Shown here in pieces: positions 9,515 to 40,980 of a stretch of 64,000 nucleotides of DNA; within the stretch, counting starts at the first letter, position 1; every line of letters begins with the position of its first letter. This stretch comes from Cirrosporium novae-zelandiae. Taxonomy: Eukaryota. A program made the position numbers and the translations under genes. Below the pieces are notes generated by a model. It saw only the letters and a list, made by a program, of their open reading frames with translations. It was not told the origin of the DNA and did no database searches. The DNA is taken from assembly GCA_026023565.1 (NCBI GenBank), contig JAPETS010000037.1:1-64000 (forward strand), given 5' to 3'.

Positions 9515-12047
9515 ATGGATTCCGAGGATTTGCCACGAAAACGTCAGAAGCTCTCCAACGAGCATACCTTGGAGAGCACAACAGAGTCAGCTTCAGCAGA
9601 TGTGAGCATGGAAGACGCTTCTCATGTTCAAGCACCTCTAGAGGAGGCCAATACCCAGAACATTATGGATGAGCAACGGGACAAGGAGGCTGAAGCTGGT
9701 ATTACTGAGTATATCAAGCCTGACATTCCTGGGTTCGCTGGTATATTGAAGAAGAGGTACGACCGCAATTCCTCTCCATAAGTTTTCCTCTTCATAAGTT
9801 TGAGTATGAGTGATGCGGCTCTGTATAAATTTCCTCCTGACATATATCTAGATACGCGGACTTTCTTGTAAATGAGATATCTTCCTCCGGTGAAGTTTTA
9901 CATTTGCGCGATCTCAAAGCCCCCAAGAAGGCCAAAAGCGATGACCAGACCCAGTCAACTTCTACTTCAAGTGCTCCTTTGGATGTGGATGATGATAAGC
10001 CCGTAACACCAAAATCCCAAGAGGCGACATCAGAACAAGCTACCAACAGTACAGTTGAAACCTCCGCAATCACTGCAAAGGAACCCTCTAAATCTGACGA
10101 CCGTGATGCTGCGAAGAGCTCAACTTTCGAAGTAAGTTCTTATTGTACGGTCTTTTTGTTTGATACTGATTGGTAATGCAGGTGTCAGCGGACGATAGTG
10201 CACTCTTACACTCATTCTTCGACGACAAGATAGTTAAATCTATTATTGCTCTCCATGAGGACATTCTTGCAAACCCCAAGAAAAAATCTCGTGATCACAA
10301 GACTATCGTAGCCTCTGCTATTACTGATAAAGAGCTTCGAACCAAGATTCATCAGAATATGCGACGCATCTTTGCATCTAAGCTTGAAACATCTACAGAT
10401 GGTGAGGGTGTCATGACAATTTCTGCTTCCTCTCAAGGTCGTTCAGGCGGTGGCAGGAGTAACAACCGAAATTCTAATTTCAAAGGTAGGGTGAGTTGGC
10501 TAGAACTCGGAGGCGAATATCTCCATTTCACAATCTTCAAGGAGAATAAAGATACTATGGAGGTCATGGCATATCTAGCTCGCCAGCTGAGGTTGCCTCC
10601 CAAAAACTTTCAGTTCGCTGGAACCAAAGATCGGAGAGCTATCACTGTCCAGCGAGCGAGCGTTTACAGAGTCTTCGCTGACCGTATTGCGGGTTTGAAC
10701 AAGACACTACGCAATGCTGCGGTTGGAGATTTCGAGTACTGTCCCCAAGGACTAGAACTTGGAGACCTTACGGGAAATGAATTTCTGATCACTCTTAGAG
10801 ACTGCCATTTTCCCGGGGAGGAGAATATGACACCACCAGCACGCCTAGACCTAGCAAAGAAGATCGTCTCTTCTTCTGTTTCCGAGTTTCAGAATAGAGG
10901 ATTCATCAACTACTATGGCCTGCAGCGCTTTGGCACCTTTAGTTCTAGTACAGACAGCGTTGGTGTGAAGATGCTTCAAGAAGACTTCAAGGGTGCATGT
11001 AATGCAATTCTGTCTTTCAAACAAGAGACTTTAAATGCCGCAAAAGATCCTCTTTCGACGGGCAACGATCGTATTTCTAGGGACGACAAGGCGCGAGCAT
11101 ATGCGATTGATCTGTTCCAGCAGTCAGGAAAAGTCACTGCGGCGCTTGATGCTTTACCCCGGAAGTTTTCTGCAGAATCCTGTATTATCCGTCATCTTGG
11201 TCGACGTGAATGCGCCAAGGATTTTCAAGGAGCACTCCGAGATATTCCAAGGAATTTACGGCTAATGTATGTTCATTCATATCAGTCCCTTGTATGGAAT
11301 GTTGCTTCTAGTGAACGTTGGAAGCGTTATGGAGATAAAGTGGTAGAGGGAGACTTGGTTCTTGTCAATGAGCACAAAGACAAGGTTACAAGCGAACAAG
11401 AGGACACCGTTGATGCAGAAGGAGAGGTTGTAATTCATCCTAGTGGTGAAGACCGAGCGATGGATGCAGACGATCGGTTCGAGCGCGCTCGTGCCTTGAC
11501 AGCCGAGGAAGCATCATCTAGTTTCTACACCATTTTTGACATTGTCCTCCCACTTCCAGGATTCGATGTCCTCTATCCATCCAACATGGTCGAATTCTAT
11601 AAATCATTCATGTCAAGCGAGCGCGGCGGCGGTCTGGATCCCTTCAACATGCGTCGCGGTTGGAAGGACATTAGTCTCAGCGGTGGATATCGAAAACTTC
11701 TCGGAAGACCCGGCCCGAACCCTTCATTCGAAGCACACCTCTACAAGAAAGACGACGAGCAGTTTGTGGAAACAGATCTGGAAGTGATTAGGAAGAGCGG
11801 AGGAAAGGTCAGCAATTCTTGTCTAGCTACTCCACTCGTCGATGATGCTGGCGAGGGTGGCAATGCTAAGAGGGATGAACCAAAGGAAGAAAAAGACAAA
11901 GTGGAGGAAGAAGAAGAAGAAGAGAAAATTGCCGTGGTTCTGAAGTTCCAGCTTGGTTCGAGTCAATATGCCACAATGGCTCTGAGAGAGCTGGCCAAGT
12001 CAGGAGGAATCCGAACATACAAACCTGATTTTGGCGGAGGGAGGTGA
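9515..12047 (+). CDS. PUS7: Multisubstrate pseudouridine synthase 7 (TruD family); introns 9757-9851, 10132-10181
   Basis: GILKKRYADFLVNEI, FAGTKDRRAITVQ (catalytic Asp), GNEFLITLR, GFINYYGLQRFG, YVHSYQSLVWN, SSQYATMALREL. Confidence 0.95.
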
Positions 12048-16538: not shown

Positions 16539-18206
16539 ATGGCCATTTTTCTACGCCTGCGAGCTCTCGGTGCCGTCGCTCTGGTGGGTTTGCTTGCTAC
16601 CTGTGTGGCTGCGGAAGACCCTGTCGTCACAGTCCTTAATGGTACTTACGAGGGTCTCTACCTACCACATTTTGACCAGGATATCTTCCTTGGGATTCCA
16701 TACGCGCAAGATACGGGTGGTTCTAATAGGTTTCGTGTGCCGCAGGCGCTGAATACCACCTGGAGCGGGGTGCGCGAAGTGAAGAGTTATGGTGATGCGT
16801 GTCCTGATATCAGTGAGGATGATATGGTATACGGCATGAGCGAAAACTGTCTCAGTATTAATATTATTCGGCCTGCCGGGTTGGATGCTTCGGCGAAGCT
16901 GCCGGTTCTCCTGTGGATTCATGGCGGAAGCTATCAGGTTGGCACATCGGGCCTGACGAACTACAACTTGACTTTCATTGTTGAGAAGTCCGTCGAGATC
17001 GGTAAGCCCATCATCGGGGCCAGCATCAATTATCGAAAGGGCGGTTGGGGAAATATGTATTCTCGTGAGATTCAGGGGACGGGGAATACGAATCTCGCGC
17101 TGAGGGATATGAGACAGGGGCTTGCTTGGATTTCGGAAAATATTGGTCCTTTTGGTGGAGATACAGATAAGGTTACTATTTGGGGGGAGTCGGCGGGTTC
17201 GTTTGCTGTGGGTCAGCTGCTGATGACTTATGGTGGCTGTACAGATGGGTTGTTCCATCGGTCTATTCAGGAAAGCGGAAGTGCGGCGACGGCTTGGTAT
17301 AATGGATCGGATTGGTATCAACCGAAGTATGATAGCCTTGTTGAGGGCGTCAACTGTTCAGATGCGATTGATACTCTGGAATGCCTCCGAACTGTCTCTT
17401 ATGAGGATATCTACCCATATCTTAATTCTTCTGTGGCAGGAGTTTTCTATCCCACTGTCGACGGTGACATAATGCCGGATTTTCCAACACAGCTACTTTC
17501 CCAAGGCCGCTTCGCTCACATTCCTCATCTCTACGGAACCAATTCGGATGAAGGAACTGCCAATGCGCCCGAGGGTATTGATACCGACGAGGAGCTTCTC
17601 GACTATGTTCTGAATCAGACAGGCTGGGGCTTCCCAGAGTGGGCAGCAACAGAAATCATGGAATTGTACCCTGATAACCCAGCGCTTGGAATCCCCTTGA
17701 ACACAGGCTCAGAACGATTCGCTTCCCATGGATGGCAGTACAAGCGCGCAGCAGCAATTACGGGTGATGTGTTTTATCACGGCCCTAGAATGGATGATGC
17801 TCGCCATTACTCCTCGTATGACCCAACATATATCTATCGCTTCAACACCCGACCATTCGAAAATTCAACGAACGCGACCTATACCGATTATGTTGGTTCT
17901 CTAAATGCTGATTATGAGGGAGTCGCACACTTCAGCGAAGTCGCCTTTGTCATGAACAACTGGGGTGATGTAGGCCCGTGGCCCGCCTATGAAGCATTGA
18001 GCGACCAAATGAGCAGCCAATGGATCAACTTTGTGGTTTCAGGCAACCCGAACGCGGATGGCCTGCCGACGTGGCCGAAGTACAGCGAAGGACCGAATGG
18101 ACTCAATCTGGTGTTGCAGGTCAATGGTAGCTATGTTGAAGAGGATACATATAGGTTAGAGGGGAGAAATTTCTTGAGTAAAATCGCGAGAAGGAGACAT
18201 GTGTAA
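16539..18206 (+). CDS. Secreted type-B carboxylesterase/lipase, intronless
   Basis: Signal peptide; FLGIPYA, SENCLSINI, WIHGGS, GESAG nucleophile, GTNSDEG acid, GVAHFSEV His. Confidence 0.95.
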   Translation: MAIFLRLRALGAVALVGLLATCVAAEDPVVTVLNGTYEGLYLPHFDQDIFLGIPYAQDTGGSNRFRVPQALNTTWSGVREVKSYGDACPDISEDDMVYGMSENCLSINIIRPAGLDASAKLPVLLWIHGGSYQVGTSGLTNYNLTFIVEKSVEIGKPIIGASINYRKGGWGNMYSREIQGTGNTNLALRDMRQGLAWISENIGPFGGDTDKVTIWGESAGSFAVGQLLMTYGGCTDGLFHRSIQESGSAATAWYNGSDWYQPKYDSLVEGVNCSDAIDTLECLRTVSYEDIYPYLNSSVAGVFYPTVDGDIMPDFPTQLLSQGRFAHIPHLYGTNSDEGTANAPEGIDTDEELLDYVLNQTGWGFPEWAATEIMELYPDNPALGIPLNTGSERFASHGWQYKRAAAITGDVFYHGPRMDDARHYSSYDPTYIYRFNTRPFENSTNATYTDYVGSLNADYEGVAHFSEVAFVMNNWGDVGPWPAYEALSDQMSSQWINFVVSGNPNADGLPTWPKYSEGPNGLNLVLQVNGSYVEEDTYRLEGRNFLSKIARRRHV

Positions 18207-19440
18207 TGAATTATTGGAATATCATCATTCAGCTTCTTCTTCTATAATGAAAACAAGGCTTGAATTAGTTGAAACTATGTATCAATTGAACGTATTGACC
18301 TCTTTCCTTCCCTAGCGAGATGTAATAATGTGGTCCAATTCCACCTGTGTTGAAATCTAGACACGATAGACTATGGGTTCATTAGGGAGCTCGCGAGTGT
18401 ATGTATGTAATGAATCAACAATTTATTTATATGATGCTAGTTCAATTGACTGAAATGTTATTAAATCTAAGCTTAGGCCATACCAACCCCCCGGCCCTTA
18501 ACACCAATACCAACGACCAACGAACAAAGGTCCCCAAGAGGCCCACGATCTACCACCAAAGTGCACCAAACACCACCTAAACCAAAACCAAAACCCTCCT
18601 ACCTACCCCCAGTATCCAAACCACTTAACCAGCTAATCACAACTCACCCATGCCCCCTATTCTCAAAAAATAAAGAAATAGAAAATGGTAAGGGATTTAA
18701 AGTACTATATAATTTCGTTTTTGATGGTTATATGGTTATTATAGGGTTAGTTTTGTTTGTTCGGGGGATATGGATGGATATGGATGTTTAGGGTGAGGGG
18801 GGGGGATTGGTTATTTATTTTTTGGGAGCATGTGGTTTGTTAGCCCCTGAGTGAAGAGGGCCTTTGGGGCGAACTGGGAACTGGGAATTAGGGGTTAAGT
18901 AACTTATATACTAATTAATTAATCTACCTACCCATTCTTATCTATCTTATATAAAGAAGGTGTTCGGTTCTCTCATCTCGACTTGTCAATAGAAAGATGA
19001 AAAAAAGTCAGCAAGCCATGTTAGCTAATTATTGGTATTTATTGCATTCCTGAATTAAATATATAGACTATATTTCCAAGAGGTAATGAAGTTGCCAGTA
19101 GAACCAAACAACGAGTGAGTCTGGTCTGTCTGCAGGTATGTATTCTCGCTATCTATTATTTAGAGAGAGAGAGAGAGTCATAGTAGATAAGATAAGATGG
19201 GTTTTTTAAAGAAATCTTTTGTAGTAGGAGCTGGTTTGTAAGGGAGGGGCTCCTCCTGGGCTAACTAACAACCCGTTACTTGATAGCTTTTCTGAAAGCC
19301 AAATAGCTAGCCAATGTTTGTGTGTCTGTGTGTGTGACAGTGACCAATCAATCTCTCCTGAACTCTTTTCCAACAAATCCCCATAAAAACTTAACCTAAG
19401 CTACCTACCTCACTTTGGTGGCAGTGGTGGTGCTTACAAG

Positions 19441-21738
19441 TTACAACATAGCTTGAAGTGATCCAGGCATACATGTCAACCTTGCCCGTTTCATATACGG
19501 GTTTATTTCCTTTCGACCATCCTTTCGAAACTGGCCTCGTCTGGGAACCAGAAACTCGTACGATAGGACTTGGCCGTCTAGGAGAATACGGAATTCGTAG
19601 TTAATCATGTAGTTTTCTTCGCCTGTGGTGGGGTTTGTGATGATAGTTAGTTTTGAGCGGTCGATGTCGGATATGTCGAGTTCTATGGAGCCCATTTTGG
19701 TGATGTCTAGCTCCGTTTAATTGTTAGTATAGTAAGGGGTCGGGGAGAGGCTGAAGAGTGATGCTCTCTCTCTTGTACGGTACGTACCTTGCGATTCATG
19801 GGATACAGAATCTCGATTTTCTGTGGATGAGCTGAACAATATCTCTTCACACACGATTTTTGTTTGATCCTTGCCGATAGGACGCCAACCACCTCGATGG
19901 ACAACCTCTTCATGGTTTCTCACCTTGTCACCGCATTTGAACAGCCAGTGCATGACACCAAGAGCCCATAACCCGCCAACCCATGGACTTTCTTTGGGTT
20001 TTATGTTGAGTGGTCCATGGATAGACTGGTCGTATGGTACGTCCCAGCAAACACCAAAGCTTGAACGGAGAATCCGGGTTTCGATTTCGTCGTTTTTCAC
20101 GAGCCGCAATATGGCGCCTGAAGAAATGATGGTCTGAGCGAGTTCGTCTGGGACGACGAGATCAATGTCATATCCTGCGATTGAGTCTGGGCTTGCGGTT
20201 GTCCGTAGGCCCTCCCTTATGGCGTGCTTGATGTGGGGATTGGCACTAAGTCCACCTACAAGGACTACTCTGCGAATATATCTGCTTTTGTCGTCCGTGT
20301 TTCGTGCATCAAAGAGGTTGATTTGCTGTTGGATCAATTCCAATATTTCTGCTACTACCTTGTCAAAACATTTCCTCACTATCGACCTAGAATAACAATT
20401 AGATGCGTTTTTCTATATTGAGCCTTGATTGCATACCGGTTGATTTCCACATAGCCATTTTTTATATAGGCATCCGCATTAAGACCCCTGGTTTTCCGCC
20501 TAAGTGGCTTCGACTTGATTCCATCAATAATGATCTTCAGGAATTCATCCTGGAGACTGTTCGCAGGACCATCCTCTGATGTTTCTGATCCTACAAATCC
20601 AAAGAATGTCTTCTTATCCTTGTCGAATTCTGCCGTGGCTTTATCAAGAATCTCGTTCCAAGTAGTCCCGGTGTCTGTCTCCAACTCCTTGGAGTGAGGG
20701 CTGAATATTTTCTGGAACGTCTGACGGAAGCATTCCGTGATAAACTCTGAACCGCAGAATCCACCTAAACAACATCAGTATAGTTTTGTCACATTTTCGC
20801 ATGGCTCGTTACCATTTCCTTGAACCTCTTCTAACATTCTTAGAGGCCGTAAACTACTCGCAACGAACGTGATCAAATCCTGTAGATTCCATTTCAGTGG
20901 GTTGTACTGCCAAGTTTAGGCATGAAGATACTCACGGCTGTACCTCCACCAAGATCAACGATGATGAATGGTTCATTGACCTGGAGTAGGTGTTAATCGT
21001 TTCCAATGGTTCCTGAAATTCCATACATACCTTCATTGCATGACCACTTCGTCGACCTTCCATTTCTTCCTGTATAGTTAGAACCGCAGCTGCTTCTGGT
21101 TCAGAAACGATACGAATGATAGGCTCGTTATCTGCAAGAAGATCAGGAATACTTTGTATGCCGGCATCGATCGCAGCCCGTTTGATGCCGTCAATCATCG
21201 ATGGTGACCACAATGCCGGTACGGTTATTGCAGTCTCAATTTCCCAATTGGGCGATGAGAATGCATTCTTCGACTCTTCCCACGTTTCTTGAATCTTTGG
21301 AACAGTATAGTCCCAGAGCTTCTTTAGGTAGATTCTGATTAGATCATTGACCGAATATGCTGGTATGGCTGGATCCCGAAGCTGTTTAAGAAGCGGCTGT
21401 CGCATTGGTTTAGTGTAAGGTGAATTATCAAGTCCAAGTTTGATAAACCTCATTCTCGACTCAGGGGAGACCATCCTTTTACGAATTGCACGCTTCACCT
21501 CATCACCCCATAGCCAGCGCTTCTTGTTAGCATCCCAAACTAGTTCTGTAGCGACATGGTTAGTTTTCTCAAACTTGATGCTCCGGATCTGCTTGAGACC
21601 AAAATTTTGTCTCATCTCTTGCGTCTCTTCTTCGGACCCAGAGACTTCACACCTTGCATAGGACACTGAAGAAAATGTAGTGCCTAAATCGATGGCGATG
21701 AAAAGCTTCCATTTCACCTTACGGCTAGAATGAGCCAT
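19441..21738 (-). CDS. Atypical Hsp70-like (HSPA12-type) actin-fold ATPase; 6 exons (21738-21031, 20980-20936, 20879-20813, 20764-20437, 20386-19788, 19706-19441)
   Basis: IAIDLGTTFSSVSY, ITVPALWS, VSEPEAAA, IVDLGGGTAD, GGFCGSEFI, VVLVGGLSANP; all five GT-AG introns restore the frame; no canonical substrate-binding lid or EEVD. Confidence 0.88.
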
Positions 21739-22491
21739 TGTGAGACTGGAGAGATTGTGCTATAAGGTTGATAGAATGAACCAGAGGAACTGGGACAGAG
21801 AACGGTTGTAGATGAATGAGCTACCTTTTAAGTATGTTTAAAGGATAGAGGAAAGTGAGAGAGAATATGAGGATGAGGAAGGGTGTGAGACGTTATTGAT
21901 TAGAGTCGGGTGAGTGATAGTGAGAGTGAAAGTGAGAATGAGAGTAAAAGTAATGAGGGATAGGCTGATTTGGATTCTTATTAAGGCATATATGGAATCT
22001 GGAGGAGTCTGGAATCCGGAGGAATATGTGCTAGGACTTTTGCTTTGATGAATTTATAAGTGAATAGATGAGATATAGCTCCGGGATAAAGAGATATGTT
22101 TGAATGAAGTATTAGGAAATTGAAGATTTGTATAAGGGGTTTAGAGTCGTCTACTTTAGTAGTTAGAACCTCCTTTTATGAAAGAAAAGAAGCTTTGAGA
22201 AAGTGTGCTGAGAAGGTGTACTGAGATGGGAGTATGCAATAGTTAAGAACTCATAGTAAGGTAAAGTGAATGTGCATTTGGCCTAGAGGTAAACAATGAT
22301 ATGAAAAAGGCCCAAAGATAAACTGGCAAGAAGACATTTCTTATCTGATTCTTTATAAGTCGCCTTTCATTTATTTTTCTCATAAACCCAGCTCACAATC
22401 CCCGACTCGAAGATTTCATCAAAGCTATCTCTTCTCAGTTTCAAGTCTTCTTCAAAAGTTCCTCATATATTAAGACTCAATTATCCTTGAG

Positions 22492-24156
22492 ATGTCATCC
22501 ATCGTGGGCATCAAGAAAAGGAAGTGGATGGGAAGCCATAATGATGAGATACTTGACTATATAGAAGAACGTAAAGGAATCAACAGTCCTTTTCTCGATA
22601 AAGATTCTACAGCCTGGAATGATATGGTTCAGCATTTCGCATCCAGATGGCCAGACATGAATATCGATCTCCCTATACTGAAATCGCGTCTTTCGACTAT
22701 GAAAAGAACTCGGAGATACGCTTCTGGCACGACTCAAGTGGGATTCCGGGACTTGTGGATTCGAGGAAGGGCCTTCTTTTCGGAACCGGCTAGTTCAGAA
22801 ATACCTACAGAACATCACCCGACACAAGGATTGGACACTTCTGTAGATATAGACAAAAATAGAAGAGAAAATCACTCATCACCTCAGCGCCGAAGGCTGA
22901 GTTCGGAGTCATCATATACTCCAACAGAGCCCGAGCTATCAGAAGTCAAGCTAGAAGGTATAATTCCAAAGCAATCTAGAACAGGTTATAAATTTCTGAA
23001 GTTTCTGAACAGGGAAAGGGCCAAATGTGCCAGATGTTTCTGTAAAAGAAACGATTGAGGCACCAAGACCGAAAATCAAATTAACTATCAAAAACCATCG
23101 ATCAGATTCTCAGCAATCCTCGAGTTTGAGCTCGCTTGGTGACCAAGAGATCCGAGAGCAGACCCGAGAGCAGACCCGAGAGCAGACCCAACAACCAGAC
23201 AGTAGCCTTGCTCCCAACGATAAAGGAAATCCATCTACTCAGCTTCATAACCGTATCGTCCAGTTGCTTGAAGGCGATCCGGACCGTTATTCGTTGATAA
23301 CAAGTGCTCTAAGAATGCGTTTGGTTGAATTACATAAAGATATCAAGAGTCTAATCCTAGAATTTCTTGACGGTATCTCTATGGAACCGACAAAAATCAT
23401 CCAGTTTCATCAGCATCTAGAAAATCCTAATTTTCTTGAGATTTGCCAGCAAACGTATGACATTATTAACCCTCAAGAGTTAGCAAGCAAAGCCCTTGAG
23501 TTGGAGCATTTATCGCCATTGAATATATGTGATTTCCTGAGAGCTTTGCTCGGTTCATGTATCACTAAATGGGTCTTCAAGTCTCTCGACGTCAATAAGT
23601 TAGAGAAAGAAAGTCTAAGAGAGCAGATACATTACCGTAAGCTCAAAGAAGGTACGCAGGAAATGTTCACAGCTTAAAGGATATCACTGACTGTGATTTA
23701 GTATCCCCTGAGCTATTTCATCTCTTGGACAAAGAGGTGAGCTATGAGTATATGGAGGCATTGCTTCAAAAACAGTCGCTTGACCTGGGACTCGCATTAA
23801 GGTTTATTGACGCAGTCGCTCCATTGACTACCATGTTATGCAGACAAGGTAGAACACGTTCACAATCACCCCAAGATGTTAGAGAGACCTTGACAAAATG
23901 GCGGACGTCATTGCAAACGGTATTCAGAAGGAGCATTAAGTTTCTCATGGATATCGATCGTGATACTCAAGAGTACGAATTCGTATGGGTCGAGGCAGAT
24001 TCAGAATTTGAGAGTGGGTCTATGAAAATGGTGATATCAAAGAAACTAGCATTCAAGGATCCAAATATGAGAGTTCATGTGGCGTGTTTTCCGGGTCTCA
24101 AAAAAAGAGGTGAAGCCAGTGGATTTGTATCGCCAGCTATTGTTTTTTGCCTGTGA
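22492..24156 (+). CDS. Hypothetical protein: N-terminal Myb/SANT-like domain, disordered linker, helical region, C-terminal GrpE-like beta motif; exons 22492-22957, 23013-23651, 23702-24156
   Basis: Three ORFs join in frame via GTATAA..CAG and GTACGC..TAG; N-term W..SHNDEILDYI...AWNDMVQHF...LKSRLSTMKR; C-term YEFVW...SEFESGSM...VHVACFPGLKKRG...VSPAIVFCL. Domain calls by eye. Confidence 0.7.
23152..23189 (+). repeat. 12-bp coding tandem repeat (CCGAGAGCAGAC)x3 encoding REQT
   Basis: ccgagagcagacccgagagcagacccgagagcagaccc. Confidence 0.9.
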
Positions 24157-27911: not shown

Positions 27912-28515
27912 TTGTAATAATTGTGTTCTTTCTCACCCTACCCTTAAATCCCACCTTCGCTATGCAAATATATCGATAAGTAATTCAAGCCAAGCAAAGC
28001 CTAAATCCAAGTTCTCCTCCCCTCCTTTCCTCTCTGTACCGCACTTCGCCCACACCCACTCACTCTCTGTACTCGTACGTACTACATGCTATAAGCATAA
28101 TTAAACTAGCCAGCCAGACTATGCAAAGTTGGAAATTCCTTAGTTTCGCCAATGCTCCTTTCCCCTTCCCTTCGCCCTTCCCTATCTGTCCTTTCACAAC
28201 ACCATTTCCCGATCTAGCATTTGCAAGAAAAAAATATGTAGAAACATTATTGTATCTTTCTCTCTCTCGATGCTATCTCCCTTTCTTTCTTTCAAAAAAA
28301 CAAAAGAAATTCGTTTTATGTGAAAAAGAAAAGAAAAGAAATTATGCATAAGTAACATCAGCCCCGTGTGTAATGCATGAATCATCTCTTGCATTTTCAC
28401 TTTATCAAACAATCAATATTTGTTCCTTTCATAATTTTGTTAAGATGTTTCAAAAGTCGTTGATACTGTCGGTGGTGGTATCGAACATATCATTCAATTA
28501 AAGCACGTTAAGTTC

Positions 28516-31500
28516 TTAGTATCGCAACTTCCCTACCAGCGAGAATGTATATGCAGTTTCGGCTTCGGATTTCATCTGCCAAATAAATTAGCATTCTCAT
28601 ATATCCCGGAAAAATGGGAAAGAAAATAAAGCATACCTGAATCATATAAATTTTAGCTGTCGCTGGTGATACTCCTCCAATTGCCTTCATCATTCCTCCT
28701 TCACCACTTTCCTCCCATACACTGACAGCAATACCTGTTCTTGCGACACGCTCGAAACATGATTCTCCAAGACAAACATCTAGGAGAACTTCGCCTTTAG
28801 TTTTGCCGTTGATTAGGATGCGCTTCTCTTGACCAGTAGGCCTGTGCGACCCAGGACCGTGAGAAGGTGGGTGTGCCCCGTTGACCGGCTGCATAATGGT
28901 TAGACGCGCCGAGCCCATATCACGCCACTTTGATGCAGTCTCTCGCTGATATAGTCGGATTTTGGCGTTGCTGAGGCCGATGGGTGAACCCTTATTAGGA
29001 TCCCCTGTCTCCGGGGTCACGGTCCCTGAGCCATCGGAGGAGGAGTAAATGCTGTTTGAATGACTATTACCTCCATGGCGGGAACCGATAGTGGATCGTG
29101 AGATATTGAAAAGTCTGCTGCCGCTGAAACGGCGCAGTGCAGAGAAAGCGGAAGACATGGTGCCAACACTACTTTCCGAAAATTGGAGACTAGGTGTGGG
29201 TGCACTAGAAGCACGATAGCTGGATCGGGAAGATCCCCACCCGAACCAACTACTTCGGCTTCCTTTGACACTGGGTTGGCGAGATGGTCCTTGGTAGGAA
29301 TCAAAGGGGCCACGAGCATTTTGAAGTGCAATGTAGGTTGGGTTGTTTATACGCGCGTAGTTTATCATAGCATAAAGTGTTTCGCACTCCTCAGGATTTC
29401 GAGACCGAAACATGATATTGGAACTTGTTTTAATCTTGGATCGAGGTGTGGGAGGTGAGCGGATGCTAATATCTAGTGCCGTCCCTCGACGTAGCGGTAC
29501 TAGTGGCGTCAATTCTAGAGCGACCAGAGGCTTTTCACCATTATCAGATGAAGACACGGATTCCCCAGACGATGTATGGGGTCGAGAATGGTTAGCAGTC
29601 AACTCAAAGGCCTCTATGAGACCAGGCGAAATAACTATACTGCATTCATCTGGATGAAGACTCTCCCAAATCCCCTTGTCAGACCAAGAGAAAATAGACC
29701 CAATAGCCTTTTGCGCTTTTGATGGTTGGGAAGGAACTGTTTGGTATGGGGCTTGAGAAGCGGAGTTGGAGGGAGCTAATGTAGACTTGGCCAAAGACGG
29801 AAGTGAGGAGGGAGGGGAAACCTTAGAGAACTTTGGAAGAGCATCGTTTGGCAATAGTGGTGTGGGTACATCTCCACCTTCTAGGTCTTCTTCATCGGAA
29901 TATTCGGAATCGGAGATTTCATAATGCTCGACAGTCGAGGCTTCGGATTCCGAACCTGATTCAGAAGCCGTCGATGGCTCATATTCATGTTTCAATGGAG
30001 ACGAAGATCGTCTTTTCACATTGCGCACGCCAGAAGGAGAAAGAACTGGTGTCTGTGCAGATTTTAGTCGGACCGGACTAGGCGTTCGATGAGCCGGAGG
30101 TGCTGGAACATCATCACTGTATATAGCCGACTCATCCTTCGGATCTGAAGAACTACGTTTGTGCGATTCGTCTGGAGATTTCACTGGAGTAGTGGGCATA
30201 GACGATGGCCGTTCCTTCTTCTCAGAAGTAGCAGAGAGAGTACTTGATGAACTATTCTTTCTAATTTTGGGGATGTGTGGGAGGTCCAAAGAGGGCACTG
30301 AGGAAGGTGCCCGATGATAGCGAGATCTGCGCCCTTTTTCTCTGGGTGGGCTTGCTGTATCACTTGGAGGACTTCCCGGTGGGCTGTTTTCAATAGGTTC
30401 TGGGGATCTTGTCCTCTCTTTGGGTGAGCCGCGTATGCGACTATCCATTGAAGATGGAAACGAGTGCTCATCGGGTTCAGAATCCGGACTGTGCATGTCA
30501 TCTGGGTGCCGAGACCGCCTCTTCGCCCCTGATCTACGCAACCCGGAGCTCGAAGGACTTGTTGGTTGACTTCTTGGAGATCTAGCAGATTCTGGGGAAG
30601 GATGATCCCGCTTTTCAGGCGACCCCATTAAGAATCGTGAAAATAGTCCTATTGGTGTAGCTGGGGGAGAAGGCTCAACTTCTCTCCGCCGGGCTTCTGG
30701 CTCACGGGGAGTGGTGGGTGGGGACTTGTTACCATCGAGCTTTTCGGTGCTAGGTGTCCATCGTTTAGATAGGGAGGTACCCTGCTCTCCGATTGGCACA
30801 TCTACCTCTGTTGGACTTGGCGTCCTGCTCTTTCCTGTAGGCAAGACGGGTGCAGGAGATAATGCGGATGACGCTGGTGAAATATTTGCCGGTGCCTGCT
30901 TCTTCCTCTTCTCAAGGAAGCTTAGGGATTTTGTAATTTTTGGTGGCACTGGACTCAATCCAAGCATCTGAACCCATTCGAAACCAGCTTGCTCATCGTC
31001 TGTAGCCAAGACCATCAATTCCTGCCACTCACCACCGTGGTTGGTAATACCGCGAATCATAACTACGATCTCACCCCGGCTATCACCATTACGAGCTGAT
31101 ACCCTCCCAAGAGTTACAGGAGGGAATAGTAGACAACGACCTGCTCCATCAACCTCACAAATAAGTAGATCGCCACTGTTTCCTCTCTCTGGAGGATCGT
31201 CTCGTAGAAGAAGCTCGGCACGGCAATCCACCAATTGACCACTTGTGTGCTGTATCCTCAAATCAAACAAATCACGAGCTCGTACCCGTCTATTTTGATC
31301 AATACTGACATTGGATAGAGGAGCCAGAGTACACGGGTCTCGAGCTCTAGTAGGATCGATAGCAGCTGCAGTTTCATCTTCCAATCTGGCCCTTTCTTCA
31401 TTCAGGCGTTGCCTTGCCTTGGTAACCAAACTTTGATATTCCATGGCCATCTTTTCAGCAGTCGGGGAAGGCTTCAAGATATTAATTCCCTTGAAGGTTT

Positions 31501-33805
31501 TTGCAAGGTATTTCAGCCGAACTAACGGCCTCTTTAGAAGAAATGCAACATCAACCCGTTCACCCGCATTGTTAACAACATCCCCATCCGCATTTCGGGG
31601 CAACCCTTCATCAATTTTACCCGGATCGGCGCCCTTTGCTTTGTCCTCCTCAGATGGAGCAAGGTTTACCACAACGTCCTGAAAACCAAGACGCCATGAT
31701 TTCAGATAATCGGAGTAGGCCTTTTGTGCGCCTTGAGCCCACCTAAGTAGACGTTCTGGGTCATGTTCTGGTATTCTTTTGTGCAGTGTCTTCATCCTCT
31801 CAAGAGCAATTCCCATGTCAATTATAGGCCGTGTAAAGTTTGGGTCATCTACAGCTACTCCTGGGGCATGAAAGAGGCCAGCTGCTAGAGCAGAATCGGC
31901 TTTGGAGAGGACACAGGTTAGAAGAACAGGTATAACACCCTCTACCAAAGTCCATAGTTCTGGCATATATTTCTTCTCGTCTGCCACGAGTTCCTGCATG
32001 AGGTCATCGACCGTAGCGGTAGCAAGACGACTTCGGTTCGTTCGTATACTCCGTGCTGAGCGAATGCTCCTACCGCTTGAGTGGGGCACGGATAGTACGG
32101 ATATCAAGTCTGAATGTTTTGTGAGACGGCGCTTCAGGCTAGTCTTCTTCCCTGGTAAAGAGTACGGGTCGAAGGCATCTCTCAACTCTGATTGCTCATC
32201 TTCTGTAATAGTAATTTCAGTCGCAGTAGGATCGATATTACTATCCAAGGTTTCCACCGATGCGATGGTAGATAATTTATACCTCCCAGTTCTTGGAGCA
32301 GCCCTCTTTATATTAAGTCCTGGAGGGCGTAGCGACTCGATAATATCCCGCTCCTCACTGGGTAGTTCTGGCGATTTTTCAGGTAAACTGTCCCTACCTG
32401 GCTCTTCATCTATAGTATCAGCTTGTATTGCCGATGACTCCCGCCTCCCCCTGGTCCTAGGTGAAGTACGCTCTCGTCGTGTCCCACCATTGCGCCTCAA
32501 TGAGGGACTAGAGTCGGCTGTCTTGGATTCATTGTTAACCTGATTTTTTGAATCATAGCTCGATGTTGAGTTTCTGCGTTCAGTCGATGTCAGATCAGGG
32601 TTTAATGGTGCAATGTCTGAGATGTCACTGGTAGAACGTCTTTGTGATCTCCGTTCTTGCCGTCTTTCTCTACGTTTTTCGCTAGACGGCTCGTCTAGGT
32701 GTTCCTTTTTATCCTCGTGATCAACACTAGACTCCTTTTCAATAATTTTATCATCTTGTTTTTTCCGTTTCGAAGTCCTTAGTGGCGCAGGTATCTCGAC
32801 CGGTGGTTCATCATCATCGCCTTCAAGAAATGGATCAGGTGTCTTTTCAAGCCATGCTTCAATCCTTGAGCCTTTTGGTATCTGGGGCGGAACAGGGTCA
32901 GGTTTAGCAAACGCTTTCTTCGATTCTTCAAAAACCTGCTTGAGTATCCCTGGTTTGTGAGACCGGCTGTTAGCCCGGCCCTCCGGAAAAGCACCTTGGT
33001 TTGCTTTCGGGGAGCCACCTGAGGCTTTGGACTTGCGACGACTATGCTTTCTGTCATTGGCATGTGTCGCTGCTGATGCACCAAAGGCAAGCTCTGACTC
33101 GGATTCGACATCTTGTGTTTGAAGTTCTGAGGATTTCTTATGGCTTGGTGAAGGGGTATTATGAGAATGTAGTCTTTCGTCCCCAGATTTATTGCCGCTC
33201 TTGCTGCCAGAATCCTCGCCGGGGGGCGGCTTTAAGTGTTCTGTCCGACTTCGCGAAGCCTTAGGGGTGCTGTATATTCGTTTCCCATCCGCATCATGGG
33301 TTTTTTTCTCCTTATCATCCTTTTTTGATTTAACAAGAGAGATTTGACTCGATGATCCGCAAAGACTTTCATCTGGTTTTGTCGGGCTTTTGTCTTTCTT
33401 ATCTTTGCGCCAATGCTCGTCGCTGACAATTCTCTTTTTTGGCGAGGTCGCACGCTTGAGTTTTTCTCTTTCACTTAGATAGGTTTCTCTTTCGGTCCTA
33501 TCCTTCTTGGCCGACTTTCGACTCGTAGCTGTAGATGTGTTTGAAATTGCAGATGCCGTCTCCTTCAGTTTTGACTTGGGCGTTTTCGGTTTTTCGGGCT
33601 CAGGCTCCTCATCGCCGGGACCAATATCTTCTTGCACAATAACTCCTCCGCCATGCTCTTGCCATGCCCTAATTTTATCGCGTACGCCGGGGTTGGGCGC
33701 GGGCGGGAAAAGTGGATTAGGAGCCGTTGCAGACTTGGAAGTTGGCGGGGTATTATTATTACTGCGGCGATTTGAGGAGCGTTGAGGGGTGGAAGGAGAG
33801 GGCAT
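28516..33805 (-). CDS. Large fungal protein with DH (RhoGEF)-like and PH-like domains in Ser/Pro-rich disordered sequence; terminal intron 28636-28576
   Basis: 1765-aa ORF; LMQELVADEKKYMPELWTLVEGVIP and LLKRPLVRLKYL resemble DH helices; KWRDMGSARL is PH-like; splicing gives C-terminus MKSEAETAYTFSLVGKLRY*. Confidence 0.75.
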
Positions 33806-35006
33806 TGAGATCTAGTATAGACTGTGTTAGTCGACCTTATACACATAGACATGTTTCATTATGGTTACTGATAGTCGAACTAAGGCTCAACCGCTCAAGT
33901 CGGATATGAGACAACTGTCACCGTTTACGTACCTTTGATAGGCTTCATGAGCGCGCTTCTCCTCGAGGAGAGAGGTGTAGGTGGCAGGTATGCCCAAAGC
34001 CTCCTGGGCTTGGTTCAGGTTTCTCAGGTTCGCCTTGTATGCTGTCGGGGCTGCTTAATTGGGAATCTTGACAACAACGCGCAAAGTCATGGATCTCCAA
34101 GATTTTGACCATTCACGCCGTCGTTATCGTCGCTTGATCTGCGGTAACCATCAACTAATCCAGATTTGGCAGCATGTATCGATAGCGCCTCATCCTAATT
34201 CACCAACTTCAATTATTCTTAATTAGCCATTTCAATAAAAATAAGTCCATCCGATCAAAAAAATTGCATGAGGCTGCTTTGCCTACAGTGCCTCAGGGCT
34301 GACTTTGTTTATGCTGTTCCTTTTTGTTTATGTGCACCTACCAAGAACCCGTAAGCGGCTTCCCTGCAATGTGCCCAACCATTGAATCCACAGCGGAGTT
34401 TGTGGCGGGAGTGGCTACGCGGAACAGTTTTACTGGCAGGACCCCCTTATCGATGCCCAACCGAGAGTCTCATAAAGTCTCATAAAGTATTTACAATCAG
34501 TTTTCGGGATAATTGGGGGCGATCGAATTTGATGGTGGTAATCCGGAACCCCAGAGTGGAATAGTAAGAGGTAGTTTTTAGTGATTTAGTGCATGTGAAA
34601 TTGCATTTTCACAACCTAAACTTAACATGGTGGGAAAGACCTCATAATCTTTCTATGCATAGTCTATCCGTCGATTGAATTTCCATCAGAGTTCACTGGA
34701 TCAATAAGGTACACAAGATAATCAAGACGGATGGATGATAGGAAACGATTCATCCAGGTACCAACATTATTCTATTTGGCCACAAACCCCTTTGGCCGTT
34801 CTATTGTAATAAGCTACTACGTAACCTGCCTCTAAGTCTATTTATTCTTCCCGATCCCGTTATCTATACAGTTTTCCATGAAAAGCATAAACAGAGCTTA
34901 TCCGGCTCTTCCAATCATCCTAACCTCCAGAGACGACACCCTCCCCATCTAAATACGCAATAAACGCTATGGAAACCTTTAATATCCATGGTGTAGGGCG
35001 GGCTTT

Positions 35007-38034: not shown

Positions 38035-40827
38035 TCAAGAATCGTAAAGGTCTAAGTCATTGTCCCCCGGTTCCTCAATCTCCGCAACTGCATCGTCCTC
38101 ATCAATCATCTCAGCATCTTCCAAATCACTATCTTCATGGTTTGCCAGGACCTCAACCCTTCCCTCATTCATCACAACTCTCGCAACCTCTCCTTCTTTG
38201 ATGCTTCCCCTCAGTATCAAGACAGCCAGCCTATTTAGGACTTCCTTCTCTATTAGCCGTGCCAGAGGTCGTGCTCCATAAGCAGGCGAATATCCAGCAG
38301 AGCCAAGATAATCTTTGACATCCTTGGTACAGTATATCTTGACATCGCGACCATTCGTACTCAACCGTTTCTGCACTTCGTCGAGACGGATATCCACAAT
38401 TTTGCGGATCTCGCGCCTTGTAAGCCGGTTGAAGATGACAATGCTATTAATACGGTTGAGGAATTCGGGAAGGAAGTAATTCCGAAGAGCATTCATGACC
38501 ATCTCTTTTGTTGTCGGATCAATGCGGCCGTCTGGTGCGTTCTGACGAGCAAGGTATTCGGCACCAAGGTTGGATGTCATGACGACAATGCAGTTCTTAG
38601 CATCCACGATCCTGCCTTGGCCGTCGGTGATACGACCATCATCCATAAGCTGGAGAAGAACCGTGAGAACCTCCTTGGCGGCCTTTTCGACTTCATCGAA
38701 AAGTAGAATGGAGAATGGACGACGCCGAAGCGCTTCGGTCAACTGCCCACCAGCATCATGGCCTACGTATCCTGGTGGAGCACCAATCATGCGGCTCAAC
38801 GAATGGCGTTCTTGGTACTCTGACATATCGAATCGGATCATAGCACGAGGATCGTCAAAGAGAAACTCGGCAAGAGCTTTAGTGAGCAAAGTCTTACCGG
38901 TACCAGATGGACCACAGAAGAGAAAGCTTGGTGGTTGATTTGGATTGCTGAGCCCAGACCGCTGCAACCTGATGGAGTTCGAGACAGACTGCACGGCTTC
39001 TTTCTGACCAACAACAATCTTACCCAGATGTCTTTCCATGTGGAGGAGTTTGTCTTTCTCGGTAGTTCTAAGTCTGGTGACTGGAATGCCTGTCCACCGT
39101 GCAACAATTTCATTGATTTGTTCGGGACCAACAGCATCCGATAGGAGTGCCTCTCCGCCCTCTTCGTTGCCCCCAGCGTATAGAGCCTGGTTGGCTGCTT
39201 CTTTCGCCCTCTCGAGCTCTTGAATCCGATTTTGGGTTTCAGGGATGGCATAATAGGTAAGATCTGATGCTGTGGCAAGATCTCTTGAACGCTCAGCTTC
39301 CTCCTTCTTTACCTTTAGCTGGTCTAGCTTTATCTTCAGCTCTTGGATATCTTGACTTCTCTTCTTCTCACTCTCCCATTTCTCCCGCAATGGCTTTAAC
39401 TCTTCTTCCACATTTGCAGCTTCTTGCTTGGCAGTCGCAAGACGCTCGCGGGATGCACCATCCTTTTCACGGTCAAGAGCGTGAATTTCAATTTGCAATT
39501 GTCTCAATCTCCGTTCCATATTATCTAAAGCCTCGGGTTGAGATTCACGAGCCACGCGGACAGCAGCGGCAGCTTCATCGATGAGATCGACCGCAGAGTC
39601 AGGAAGTCGTCGAGCTGTGAGATATCTTGCAGCAAGAGTTGCGGCCGCAACAATTGCGCCATCGAGAATAGTGACACCGTGGTGAACCTCGTATTTTTCC
39701 TTCAATCCTCGGAGAATGGAGATCGTTTCAGGAATAGTGGGTTCCTTCACAAGTACTTGCTGGAAACGACGCTCAAAGGCCTGATCCTTTTCGATGTATT
39801 TTCGGTACTCCCCGAGAGTGGTTGCACCAATGCAGTGAAGTTGTCCTCTTGCAAGCATTGGCTTGAGTAAGTTTGCAGCGTCCATGCCACCCTCTCCACT
39901 TGCTCCAGCGCCCATGAGCAAATGAATCTCATCAACGAAGAGCACAATCGTCTCCTTCGAGTCTTCAATTTCTTTCAAAACCCCCTTCATTCGCTCCTCA
40001 AACTCTCCACGATATTTGCTTCCAGCAACGAGAGAGCCAACATCGAGGGATAGCAACCTACAGGCTGCCAAGTTTGCTGGGACATCCGCATTGACGATTC
40101 TTGAAGCCAACCCTTCCACAACTGTGGTTTTACCGACACCTGGCTCACCAATGAGGACAGGGTTGTTCTTGGTTCGCCTCGATAGGATGCGAATGACTCT
40201 TCGGATTTCCTCTTCTCGACCGATGACTGGATCTATCTTACCCTCTCTTGCCATTGATGTCATATCAATCGTAAACTTCTTGAGGTTTTCATTTTCCGCC
40301 TCCGCATCTGCAGTTTTTGAGTCTACCCTTCTTGTACCTCGTATTTGTTGGATGGCTGAATCGATCAGCTTTGTATTTGGAATGTTGGCATCGGCAAGCG
40401 CTCTCTGTATAGTTGGATCCTGGGCGAGCGATGTAATTAGATGGTCAACTGCAACGTAGCTATCTTTCTGTGTCTTGGAGAGCTCGTTGGCAGCCCGAAG
40501 AACCTTTGAGAATGCTGGCGCTACTGATATATTCTCCGGTGGGGGATCTTGGCTTGGCAATCGGACTAAAGCCTTGTTTAACGCTCGACTGAAGAGTTGG
40601 GCGTCGCCATGTGCTCGCTCGACGACCTGTCTGAAGAGTGGTGATGAAGCAGAATCATGCGAAGCGTGCGTTTGTTGTTGCTGATCTTTGGATTCATCTG
40701 GAGGAGGTTCGAGCAAGGAGACTGCGAGGTGGACGGGGAGGATCTGAGCATGAGCATACTGTTCAGCCAGCGCAGCAGAATCTGCGATGGCTTTTTGGGC
40801 CCGATCTGTAAATTGCATTCCGTTCAT
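38035..40827 (-). CDS. HSP104: Heat shock protein 104 (ClpB-type AAA+ disaggregase), intronless
   Basis: Clp N domain, IDPVIGR, GEPGVGKT, LFVDEIH, middle coiled coil, GPSGTGKT, RMIGAPPGYVG, LLFDEVEKA, YGARPL, acidic tail. Confidence 0.97.
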   Translation of the reverse strand: MNGMQFTDRAQKAIADSAALAEQYAHAQILPVHLAVSLLEPPPDESKDQQQQTHASHDSASSPLFRQVVERAHGDAQLFSRALNKALVRLPSQDPPPENISVAPAFSKVLRAANELSKTQKDSYVAVDHLITSLAQDPTIQRALADANIPNTKLIDSAIQQIRGTRRVDSKTADAEAENENLKKFTIDMTSMAREGKIDPVIGREEEIRRVIRILSRRTKNNPVLIGEPGVGKTTVVEGLASRIVNADVPANLAACRLLSLDVGSLVAGSKYRGEFEERMKGVLKEIEDSKETIVLFVDEIHLLMGAGASGEGGMDAANLLKPMLARGQLHCIGATTLGEYRKYIEKDQAFERRFQQVLVKEPTIPETISILRGLKEKYEVHHGVTILDGAIVAAATLAARYLTARRLPDSAVDLIDEAAAAVRVARESQPEALDNMERRLRQLQIEIHALDREKDGASRERLATAKQEAANVEEELKPLREKWESEKKRSQDIQELKIKLDQLKVKKEEAERSRDLATASDLTYYAIPETQNRIQELERAKEAANQALYAGGNEEGGEALLSDAVGPEQINEIVARWTGIPVTRLRTTEKDKLLHMERHLGKIVVGQKEAVQSVSNSIRLQRSGLSNPNQPPSFLFCGPSGTGKTLLTKALAEFLFDDPRAMIRFDMSEYQERHSLSRMIGAPPGYVGHDAGGQLTEALRRRPFSILLFDEVEKAAKEVLTVLLQLMDDGRITDGQGRIVDAKNCIVVMTSNLGAEYLARQNAPDGRIDPTTKEMVMNALRNYFLPEFLNRINSIVIFNRLTRREIRKIVDIRLDEVQKRLSTNGRDVKIYCTKDVKDYLGSAGYSPAYGARPLARLIEKEVLNRLAVLILRGSIKEGEVARVVMNEGRVEVLANHEDSDLEDAEMIDEDDAVAEIEEPGDNDLDLYDS

Positions 40828-40980
40828 GATGACGTTTTGTAATGGTTAAGAAAAGCAAATGTTAATGTACTGTACAAAGGCTTCTGCAAGCCAGGGTATC
40901 TGAATTGAAATAGAGTATATATGTTTGTTGTGTGTACTTAAGTCTGAAGTAGGAAGAGTAGGAAATTTGATCGAGGTCAC

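Follow-up and report, generated by a model that had tools for sequence, protein, structure and literature searches.

Two divergent genes in Cirrosporium novae-zelandiae encode an HSPA12-like Hsp70-superfamily ATPase and a protein with a conserved tail: a candidate Hsp70/GrpE-like module

The window analyzed here is a 64,000-nt stretch of DNA from a Cirrosporium novae-zelandiae MAG. It contains two intact multi-exon genes arranged head-to-head and separated by a 753-bp intergenic region, as the sequence-only reading had described. The two genes lie between a carboxylesterase gene (PF00135, E 3e-81) and a gene for a Rad54/Rdh54-type SNF2 helicase (PF00176, E 1.5e-76), and the flanks are thus also those proposed earlier, including an AT-rich left flank (18200-19400) that has a GC content of 37-40% and contains microsatellites. 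The features of the locus are as follows.

19441..21738, minus strand: left gene, a splice model with a six-exon CDS including the stop codon; the product is an Hsp70-superfamily (HSPA12-like) ATPase of 670 aa
21738-21031, 20980-20936, 20879-20813, 20764-20437, 20386-19788, 19706-19441, minus strand: the left-gene exons in the splice model
21739..22491, no strand: shared intergenic region, 753 bp between the divergent ATGs, purine-rich, with short GAGTGA-type repeats
22492..22957, plus strand: right-gene exon 1, residues 1-155, with a KKRK patch at 8-11, a hydrophobic-rich head of ~100 aa, and the beginning of a polar linker
23013..23651, plus strand: right-gene exon 2, residues 156-369, with the remaining polar, probably disordered linker containing REQT repeats and then a helical region
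23148..23189, plus strand: 12-nt tandem repeat of 3.5 copies, coding for the REQT repeats of the right-protein linker
23702..24156, plus strand: right-gene exon 3, about 150 residues and the stop codon, a conserved tail domain of helices followed by ~5 strands
23968..24153, plus strand: tail signature in the last 62 residues, F-x-W..AD..F..G ... V-x-VA-x-FP-x-L..R-G ... V-x-PA-x-V, given by the invariant columns of alignment A1, which are shared with the homologue P0003

Codon usage agrees with both gene models. All seven scored exon pieces (7/7, with two short left-gene exons left out of the test) score above zero in the proposed frame and below zero in both alternative frames, and the intergenic and flanking DNA scores negative in all three frames. 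The left gene has five GT..AG introns of 48-81 nt, and the right gene has two, of 55 and 50 nt. Elsewhere within the 64-kb window, neither gene has a paralogue. The 753-bp region contains no perfect heat-shock element and one site with a single mismatch; across the whole window, the scan for this element gave 25 matches, with 25.5 expected.

The product of the left gene is letter-for-letter identical to KAI9730195.1 (P0001), to which the database assigns PF27033. Against the Pfam HSP70 family (PF00012), the left protein scores 24.2 bits with a cut-off of 20.6 (E 1.2e-5), and the match covers residues 368-443 only. A profile search of the PDB (profile A2, E<=1) retrieves 45 sequences; 44 of them are named as Hsp70-type chaperones, and the remaining one is unnamed. 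In a 17-sequence alignment (A4), the residues D17, G19, T20, K100, E213, P214, A216, A217, D245, G247-G249, T250, D252, G427, G428, G473, and A474 are either invariant or reach 90% conservation or more, and the phosphate 1, connect 1, phosphate 2, adenosine, and connect 2 motifs are all present together with the catalytic Lys. The structural model of the left protein has a pLDDT of 61.6 overall and of 70-88 across much of the nucleotide-binding domain (NBD). The best Foldseek matches of this model, whose underlying alignment took in bacterial Hsp70s, are DnaK, BiP, and mortalin (E 3e-18 to 1e-15); NBD-only chains match it with a target-normalised TM of 0.68-0.75 and an rmsd of 4.8-6.3. The protein lacks the helical lid and the EEVD motif, and its C-terminus reads ...SLQAML. 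The alignment columns, Pfam, and Foldseek therefore agree with the earlier description of a gene that keeps all Hsp70 nucleotide-binding motifs without a canonical lid or EEVD, and they support its assignment as a divergent Hsp70-superfamily ATPase without the canonical C-terminus.

The label "HSPA12-like" is given on architecture only (no lid, no EEVD). The animal proteins HSPA12A and HSPA12B are ~670 aa long, a length similar to that of the left protein, and they share with it, as do the fungal proteins named "actin-like ATPase domain-containing", the NBD motifs, the missing helical lid and EEVD, and a weak PF00012 score. The difference lies in divergence: the nearest library relative (P0002, with the UniRef name "Actin-like AT...") is only 30% identical to the left protein. 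The left protein is a cytosolic-looking ATPase of the Hsp70 superfamily, in which, as in HSPA12-like proteins, a strand-rich, non-canonical C-terminal third stands in place of the lid and EEVD. Because it retains all nucleotide-binding motifs and the position of the catalytic lysine, ATP binding and hydrolysis by this protein are expected.

The right gene comprises three exons on the plus strand and encodes 519 aa. The right protein has no match in Pfam or the PDB, and none of its exons matches PF01025 at E<=1. Pfam hits to HamA, Lin-8, DUF7542, WxLIP_HBD, and eIF3m_C_helix fall far below the cut-offs and are taken as chance. Among 1.84 billion (1.84e9) representatives, the tail has one homologue at E<=0.001, P0003, with an identity of 28% by BLASTP and 31% in the MAFFT alignment of the two (A1). 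The similarity to P0003 already starts 16 residues before the first in-frame Met of exon 3; hence, splicing must join this exon to one that lies upstream. No library protein contains exon 3, a C-terminal exon, probably unannotated so far, of an unnamed Ascomycota family.

The tail motif noticed earlier is present in the right protein and is largely conserved in P0003, its sole homologue; the letters of the motif stand as first given, whereas the spacer from SEFESGSM to VHVACFPGLKKRG is 16 residues rather than 13. That the protein ends in a helical region and a conserved tail is borne out by the conservation in P0003 and by a low-confidence model of helices followed by ~5 strands, which has a pLDDT of 46, too low for the fold to be judged. 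Wider searches for the tail added no further relative: in a homologue search with the "longer" setting, 0 of 223 candidates received a score, the search with A1 at the "near" setting gave nothing beyond P0003, and the A1 pattern scan gave 137 pattern matches in metagenome contigs and 54 in prokaryote genomes with no confirmed relative in either. When the A1 profile was run against 176 bacterial genomes, the single match (E 0.006) contained two internal stops and is at chance level. The right protein is modular, with a short helical head carrying the basic KKRK patch, a polar and probably disordered linker of ~130 residues, a helical region, and a small α+β tail. This tail is the conserved unit of an unnamed and apparently Ascomycota-wide family, whose extent is suggested by language-model neighbors.

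The sequence-only reading had gone further and taken the right protein as a GrpE-like partner of the ATPase. In such a dedicated pair, the right protein would bind the HSPA12-like ATPase via its α+β tail and tune the nucleotide cycle; it would do so as an exchange factor of the GrpE type or by means of a MIEAP/GIL1-like tail with a similar role, and the locus would represent, in a fungus, an older ATPase-partner module. We regard this as unlikely, and the evidence divides as follows. The head-to-head arrangement around a shared 753-bp region counts in favor of such a pair, and the gross order of helices and then about five strands in the low-confidence tail model resembles that of GrpE (PF01025), which serves DnaK and mitochondrial Hsp70 as nucleotide-exchange factor and in which helices precede a small strand-rich C-terminal domain. 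The tail also carries a short PA-x-V near its end and a G-[YL]-x3-G-like turn, as GrpE does. However, GrpE homology of the tail is not supported by profile HMM, profile-profile, and PDB searches, all of which are at chance level. At E<=10, PF01025 matches neither the tail nor its last 78 aa, and P0003 does not match it either. An HMM of 31 GrpE sequences (hmmsearch --max) scores the tail at -2.2 bits, a value that 386 of 1000 shuffles equal or exceed. By hhalign, A1 reaches a probability of 0.11 (local) or 0.03 (global) against the 31 GrpE sequences and of 0.1 against three atypical GrpE-like proteins, and no GrpE chain appears when the A1 profile is run against the PDB at E<=10.

One measurement gives a different picture from these profile searches. 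In a semi-global comparison with a GrpE β-domain PSSM, the last 75 residues beat 298 of 300 shuffles (z 2.84), which favors the dedicated pair. The same PSSM applied to unrelated natural segments shows that 9 of 419 score as high as the tail (the tail beats 410/419), and the tail scores -0.4 against 49-142 for true GrpE sequences. Moreover, the signal is missing from P0003 (z 1.23, 34/300), and of the GrpE signature FDP..H.A, KGY, and RPA.V, only PA.V is common to both tail homologues. The right protein differs from GrpE in being 519 aa long, in carrying an additional head at the N-terminus and a long polar linker, and in lacking the profile match, FDP..H.A, and KGY. At the level of sequence, the resemblance of the tail to GrpE is weak, but it is not zero; it is most likely a short-motif coincidence of the sort that is typical of small strand-rich domains.

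The language-model search points in another direction. The 30 clusters nearest to the tail are unnamed Ascomycota clusters, with scores up to 0.96, and these suggest that the family has hundreds of members. The nearest named clusters are GIL1_IRKI_C (0.84) and MIEAP (0.81) for the whole tail, and GIL1_IRKI_C/MIEAP clusters at 0.83, 0.82, and 0.80 for tail residues 55-150; all of these named scores are below the 0.9 line of the tool. The likeness to the GIL1/IRKI C-terminal domain (PF24994) and the MIEAP domain (PF16026) thus consists of neighbor scores of 0.80-0.84 (GIL1_IRKI_C 0.83-0.84, MIEAP 0.81-0.82), which would suit a dedicated cofactor with such a tail; the sequence-only reading had likewise remarked on the GIL1/IRKI pattern. 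Set against this, the named families agree in only 5 of the 10 best named hits for the whole tail and in 3 of 10 for residues 55-150, so the heuristic calls them probably wrong. Hmmscan finds no match of the tail to PF24994 or PF16026 at E<=10, in a search where the HMMER filters drop most hits above ~0.1. The MIEAP profile exceeds the cut-off in 0/5, 0/4, and 0/401 bacterial genomes (0/410), which counts against the dedicated pair as a weak negative, the control genomes being below the cut-off as well. Distant kinship of the tail with the GIL1/IRKI and MIEAP tails is accordingly a lead only, suggested by sequence embedding. In the literature, judged at the level of search listings, we found no link of Hsp70 to the GIL1/IRKI (PF24994) or MIEAP (PF16026) domains and no dedicated partner (nucleotide exchange factor) of HSPA12A; a search for HSPA12 together with Mieap, or for two of GIL1, IRKI, and GrpE together, likewise returned nothing.

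Related loci bear on the same question. Only one other locus with a related ATPase (L001) was recovered; its neighbor is also divergently oriented, but it is dissimilar to the right protein by BLASTP, phmmer, and Smith-Waterman (z -1.4, with 975 of 1000 shuffles scoring as high or higher), which argues against a dedicated pair. In 13 bacterial loci that encode relatives of the ATPase, a PF01025 GrpE gene lies nearby in three cases, and a J-domain gene scores above the cut-off in three. It is thus a genuine theme that atypical Hsp70s have private cofactors encoded next to them, and the three loci with a private GrpE gene count in favor of the pair. In the bacterial operons L006, L009, L011, L012, and L013, an atypical Hsp70-type ATPase, detectably related to the left protein (23-26% identity), lies beside its own cofactor gene, and this is the likeness to the present locus. 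The partners in these operons are recognisable members of PF01025 or PF00226, whereas the neighbor in Cirrosporium belongs to neither family, and the two genes here are divergent eukaryotic genes with introns. The niche for such a factor is vacant: according to a review (PMC13580251), eukaryotes have no known cytosolic factor of the GrpE type, and HSPA12-type Hsp70s have neither a known function nor a known cofactor. In the stronger form of the proposal, the tail would be a module of GrpE-wing/MIEAP/GIL1 type that has diverged very far, the right protein would be a dedicated cofactor of the HSPA12-like ATPase, and the locus would be the fungal case of an ancient pairing, "orphan Hsp70 plus private partner"; this seems to us distinctly improbable.

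The arrangement has also been likened to a sensor/executor pair of fungal immunity or allorecognition, in which two fast-evolving genes are kept together and one guards or triggers the other. The genes are head-to-head and their identities to the nearest relatives are low (left 30%, P0002; right 28-31%, P0003), whereas the neighboring genes match Pfam strongly. However, thin sampling of Xylobotryomycetes can by itself explain the low identities. No HET, HeLo, NACHT, NB-ARC, TIR, patatin, or other death/immune domain was found in either protein by Pfam, the 64-kb window contains no paralogues or repeats, and the surrounding genes are housekeeping genes. We consider this explanation very improbable.

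Divergent gene arrangement is common in compact fungal genomes. The account that we find slightly the more probable is that the locus holds two genuine, intact, fast-diverging fungal genes around a 753-bp divergent region, which are most likely ordinary neighbors, and that the GrpE likeness is coincidental; the two genes would perhaps be co-expressed from the shared intergenic region. Both genes are real, and the Hsp70/GrpE-like module is an unproven candidate.

The locus adds a strongly diverged Hsp70-like gene in Xylobotryomycetes, a fungal class for which sampling is thin; a C-terminal exon, probably still unannotated, that belongs to an unnamed Ascomycota family; and a lead on Hsp70-like/partner pairing that is cheaply testable in fungal genome collections. 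If the right protein were a dedicated cofactor, a cytosolic eukaryotic Hsp70 relative would gain a GrpE-like factor, and HSPA12-type proteins would have their first cofactor. A proven private partner would make the question of HSPA12 function and its cofactor experimentally tractable.

The two genes considered here read away from each other, with 753 bp between their start codons, and their splice models were derived from the raw sequence:

19441..21738 (-), left gene, Hsp70-superfamily ATPase
22492-22957, 23013-23651 and 23702-24156 (+), right gene, candidate partner

The left gene consists of six exons separated by five GT..AG introns of 48-81 nt, and its spliced product is identical, letter for letter, to KAI9730195.1 (670 aa, NCBI), a record retrieved in a protein search at 100% identity to the first exon and titled 'MAG: hypothetical protein M1834_005959 [Cirrosporium novae-zelandiae]'; this fungus belongs to the class Xylobotryomycetes of the Pezizomycotina. 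The right gene encodes 519 aa, and its two introns, 55 and 50 nt long, are both of the GT..AG type. A codon-usage score trained on 7 other genes of the window was positive for the proposed frame and negative for the other two in 7/7 exon pieces tested, and in the intergenic and flanking DNA every frame scored negative. The splice models and this score bear out two intact, divergent multi-exon genes, as described in the sequence-only reading, which was also correct on the setting: a carboxylesterase gene and a Rad54/Rdh54-type SNF2 helicase gene (RDH54) flank the pair, and the AT-rich, low-complexity left flank is a stretch of 37-40% GC with microsatellites. No second copy of either gene was found within the 64-kb window. 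About 14 kb from the pair lies a ClpB/Hsp104-type double AAA+ disaggregase gene (AAA_2, ClpB_D2-small and Clp_N; 38038-40845 (-)), whose proximity is probably a coincidence. The neighbourhood is of a housekeeping kind, with a RhoGEF (DH/PH domains) and a Pus7/TruD pseudouridine synthase (28511-33811 (-) and 10170-12044 (+)), and a GMC oxidoreductase, a FYVE protein and a serine carboxypeptidase are encoded farther out.

Single exons of the left gene gave almost no Pfam matches, and phmmer returned no solved structure for the left protein at E<=0.01. The whole protein passes PF00012 weakly, scoring 24.2 bits where the cut-off is 20.6 (residues 368-443). When a two-sequence profile of the left protein and its Lophiostoma relative P0002 (30% identity) was searched against the PDB, 45 sequences appeared at E<=1, of which 44 are named Hsp70-type chaperones and one is unnamed; the top match is DnaK (1.7e-5). 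A 17-sequence alignment that includes bacterial relatives shows full or almost full conservation of the phosphate-1, connect-1, phosphate-2, adenosine and connect-2 positions and of a lysine at the site of the catalytic lysine. The AlphaFold model built from this alignment has a pLDDT of 61.6 overall and of 70-88 across much of the ATPase domain, and matches DnaK, BiP and mortalin with E values of 3e-18 to 1e-15, the target-normalised TM being 0.68-0.75 for chains that contain only the NBD. In the model, the final third is rich in strands, though at low confidence, and the protein ends in ...SLQAML, without EEVD. On account of the PF00012, profile, motif and model results, the left protein is a very divergent Hsp70-superfamily ATPase, HSPA12-like by architecture, and the earlier description of an Hsp70-like ATPase with nucleotide-binding motifs and no EEVD is upheld.

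No meaningful Pfam match, and no PDB match, was obtained for any exon of the right gene. By composition, the right protein comprises four parts:

head, ~100 residues, with a KKRK patch
linker, ~130 residues, 80% polar, with REQT repeats from a 12-nt tandem repeat
third part, helical and more hydrophobic
tail, 151 residues, last exon, 23702-24156 (+)

A search of 1.84 billion cluster representatives gave exactly one homologue of the tail at E<=0.001, namely P0003, a 160-aa protein encoded on a 966-bp Logan contig (pairwise BLASTP E 5e-14, 28% identity). Their alignment keeps F-x-W, AD, F..G, V-x-VA-x-FP-x-L..R-G and V-x-PA-x-V, so that the tail motif noticed in the sequence-only reading is largely conserved in the homologue; the motif is present as quoted except for one spacer, which has 16 residues, not 13. 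The similarity begins at residue 2 of the tail exon, 16 residues ahead of the first in-frame Met, and therefore this exon must be joined to upstream coding sequence by splicing. Library searches returned no protein containing the last exon, with no self-match among the 1.84e9 representatives or in word-indexed searches, though the left neighbour is annotated (KAI9730195.1); the public annotation probably misses the 23702-24156 (+) exon or the whole right gene.

The sequence-only reading had taken the tail for a GrpE-like nucleotide exchange factor. As a reference we used 31 GrpE sequences, 3 of them atypical ones adjoining atypical Hsp70 genes and 28 canonical ones drawn from 30 loci (two loci with the gene at a contig edge were left out). 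With hhalign, the tail pair (tail and P0003) reached a probability of 0.11 (local) or 0.03 (global) against all 31, and 0.1 against the 3 atypical sequences. In hmmsearch with all filters off, GrpE scored -2.2 bits on the tail, a value equalled or beaten by 386/1000 shuffles, and P0003 was unreported. The tail profile retrieved no GrpE chain from the PDB at E<=10, and PF01025, PF24994 and PF16026 were all absent from the Pfam matches of the tail at E<=10. At the motif level, a semi-global alignment of the last 75 residues of the tail with a 61-column PSSM for the strand domain of GrpE scored -0.4, the average of the shuffles being -16.9 (z 2.84; reached by 2/300 shuffles); P0003 gave a z of 1.23 (34/300), and true GrpE sequences scored 49-142. 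Nine of 419 natural 75-residue segments from ten unrelated window proteins scored at least as high as the tail (maximum 9.4); thus, judged by sequence, the resemblance lies within the top 2% of unrelated sequence and is no evidence of homology. The only GrpE signature kept in both tail homologues is PA-x-V. The GrpE-like reading of the right protein failed every sequence test run and is not supported at this level.

In a protein-language-model atlas, the 30 clusters nearest to the tail are unnamed and Ascomycota-dominated, with top scores of 0.96, 0.96 and 0.95 and 941 members in the top cluster. Among named clusters, GIL1_IRKI_C (0.84) and MIEAP (0.81) come closest, and for residues 55-150 the three best are GIL1_IRKI_C (0.83), a Mucoromycota MIEAP (0.82) and GIL1_IRKI_C (0.80), all under the atlas's 0.9 line. 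Its agreement heuristic for named families gave 5/10 for the whole tail and 3/10 for residues 55-150, which marks the family as probably wrong. The suggested likeness to GIL1/IRKI is echoed by these neighbours but not by PF24994, and a GIL1/IRKI or MIEAP relation is a lead rather than a result. None of 410 bacterial genomes had a MIEAP-profile match over the cut-off, a weak negative given that the control genomes stayed under it too.

Private cofactors beside atypical Hsp70s are real in bacteria, as follows from the genes near relatives of the left ATPase. Prokaryote genomes contain 13 such loci (23-26% identity), a fourteenth with a 26-residue match being set apart, and neighbour genes were scanned at 10 of the 13. 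PF01025 GrpE genes lie nearby in three (L009, L011 and L012), J-domain genes are above the cut-off in L006, L013 and L009 and just under it in L010, and three ATPases are fused to vWA. The loci with GrpE, and the only locus that the ATPase alignment retrieved from metagenomes (L001, 2090 bp), are as follows:

L011, 2567-5837, Hsp70-vWA fusion and divergent PF01025 GrpE
L012, 1915-8103, Hsp70-vWA fusion and divergent PF01025 GrpE, with a second Hsp70 and a TPR/zinc-ribbon gene
L009, 2485-5806, Hsp70, then a J-TPR protein and GrpE
L001, 106-1029 (-) and 1375-2089 (+), Hsp70-like gene and divergent 307-codon ORF

The bacterial cofactors are recognisable family members, whereas the fungal right protein is not. 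L001, with an ATPase N-terminus of 25% identity, resembles the window in arrangement, but the neighbour of its ATPase gene is unrelated by sequence: the upstream ORF, which has a coiled-coil-like stretch and a C-terminus cut by the contig end, has no Pfam match and compares with the right protein at a best BLASTP E of 11, -1.5 bits in phmmer and a Smith-Waterman z of -1.4. That the right protein would serve the neighbouring ATPase as a dedicated cofactor is a possible though not a likely reading, and its GrpE-type subset, against which all the sequence tests of GrpE likeness speak, is less probable still. Three Clostridium contigs (L002, L003 and L005) carry tandem same-strand ORFs of ~430-610 codons; all five Pfam-scanned ORFs of L002 (2) and L005 (3) are Hsp70-like, one with a vWA_2 match, and a sixth (L002:3650-4936) has no Pfam match.

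A 2026 review (PMC13580251) states that GrpE has no known cytosolic isoform and that the function of HspA12 is unknown. In the literature searched, no paper connects HSPA12 with Mieap or GIL1/IRKI with GrpE, and none names an HSPA12-specific exchange factor.

The intergenic region shared by the two genes, which the sequence-only reading took for a co-regulated private pair, contains no perfect heat-shock element, and near-matches across the window are as numerous as expected. Positions 21800-22250 show a strong purine and G skew on the plus strand (GC skew up to 0.64) and GAGTGA-type repeats of 6 and 18 nt. An immunity-type pair, in the manner of a sensor and its executor, is unlikely. Both genes and the tail motif are real, the left gene being a new, very divergent member of the Hsp70 superfamily and the right gene belonging to an unnamed fungal family. 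The most likely reading, by a little over an even chance, is that the genes would be two ordinary neighbours with a common divergent promoter region.
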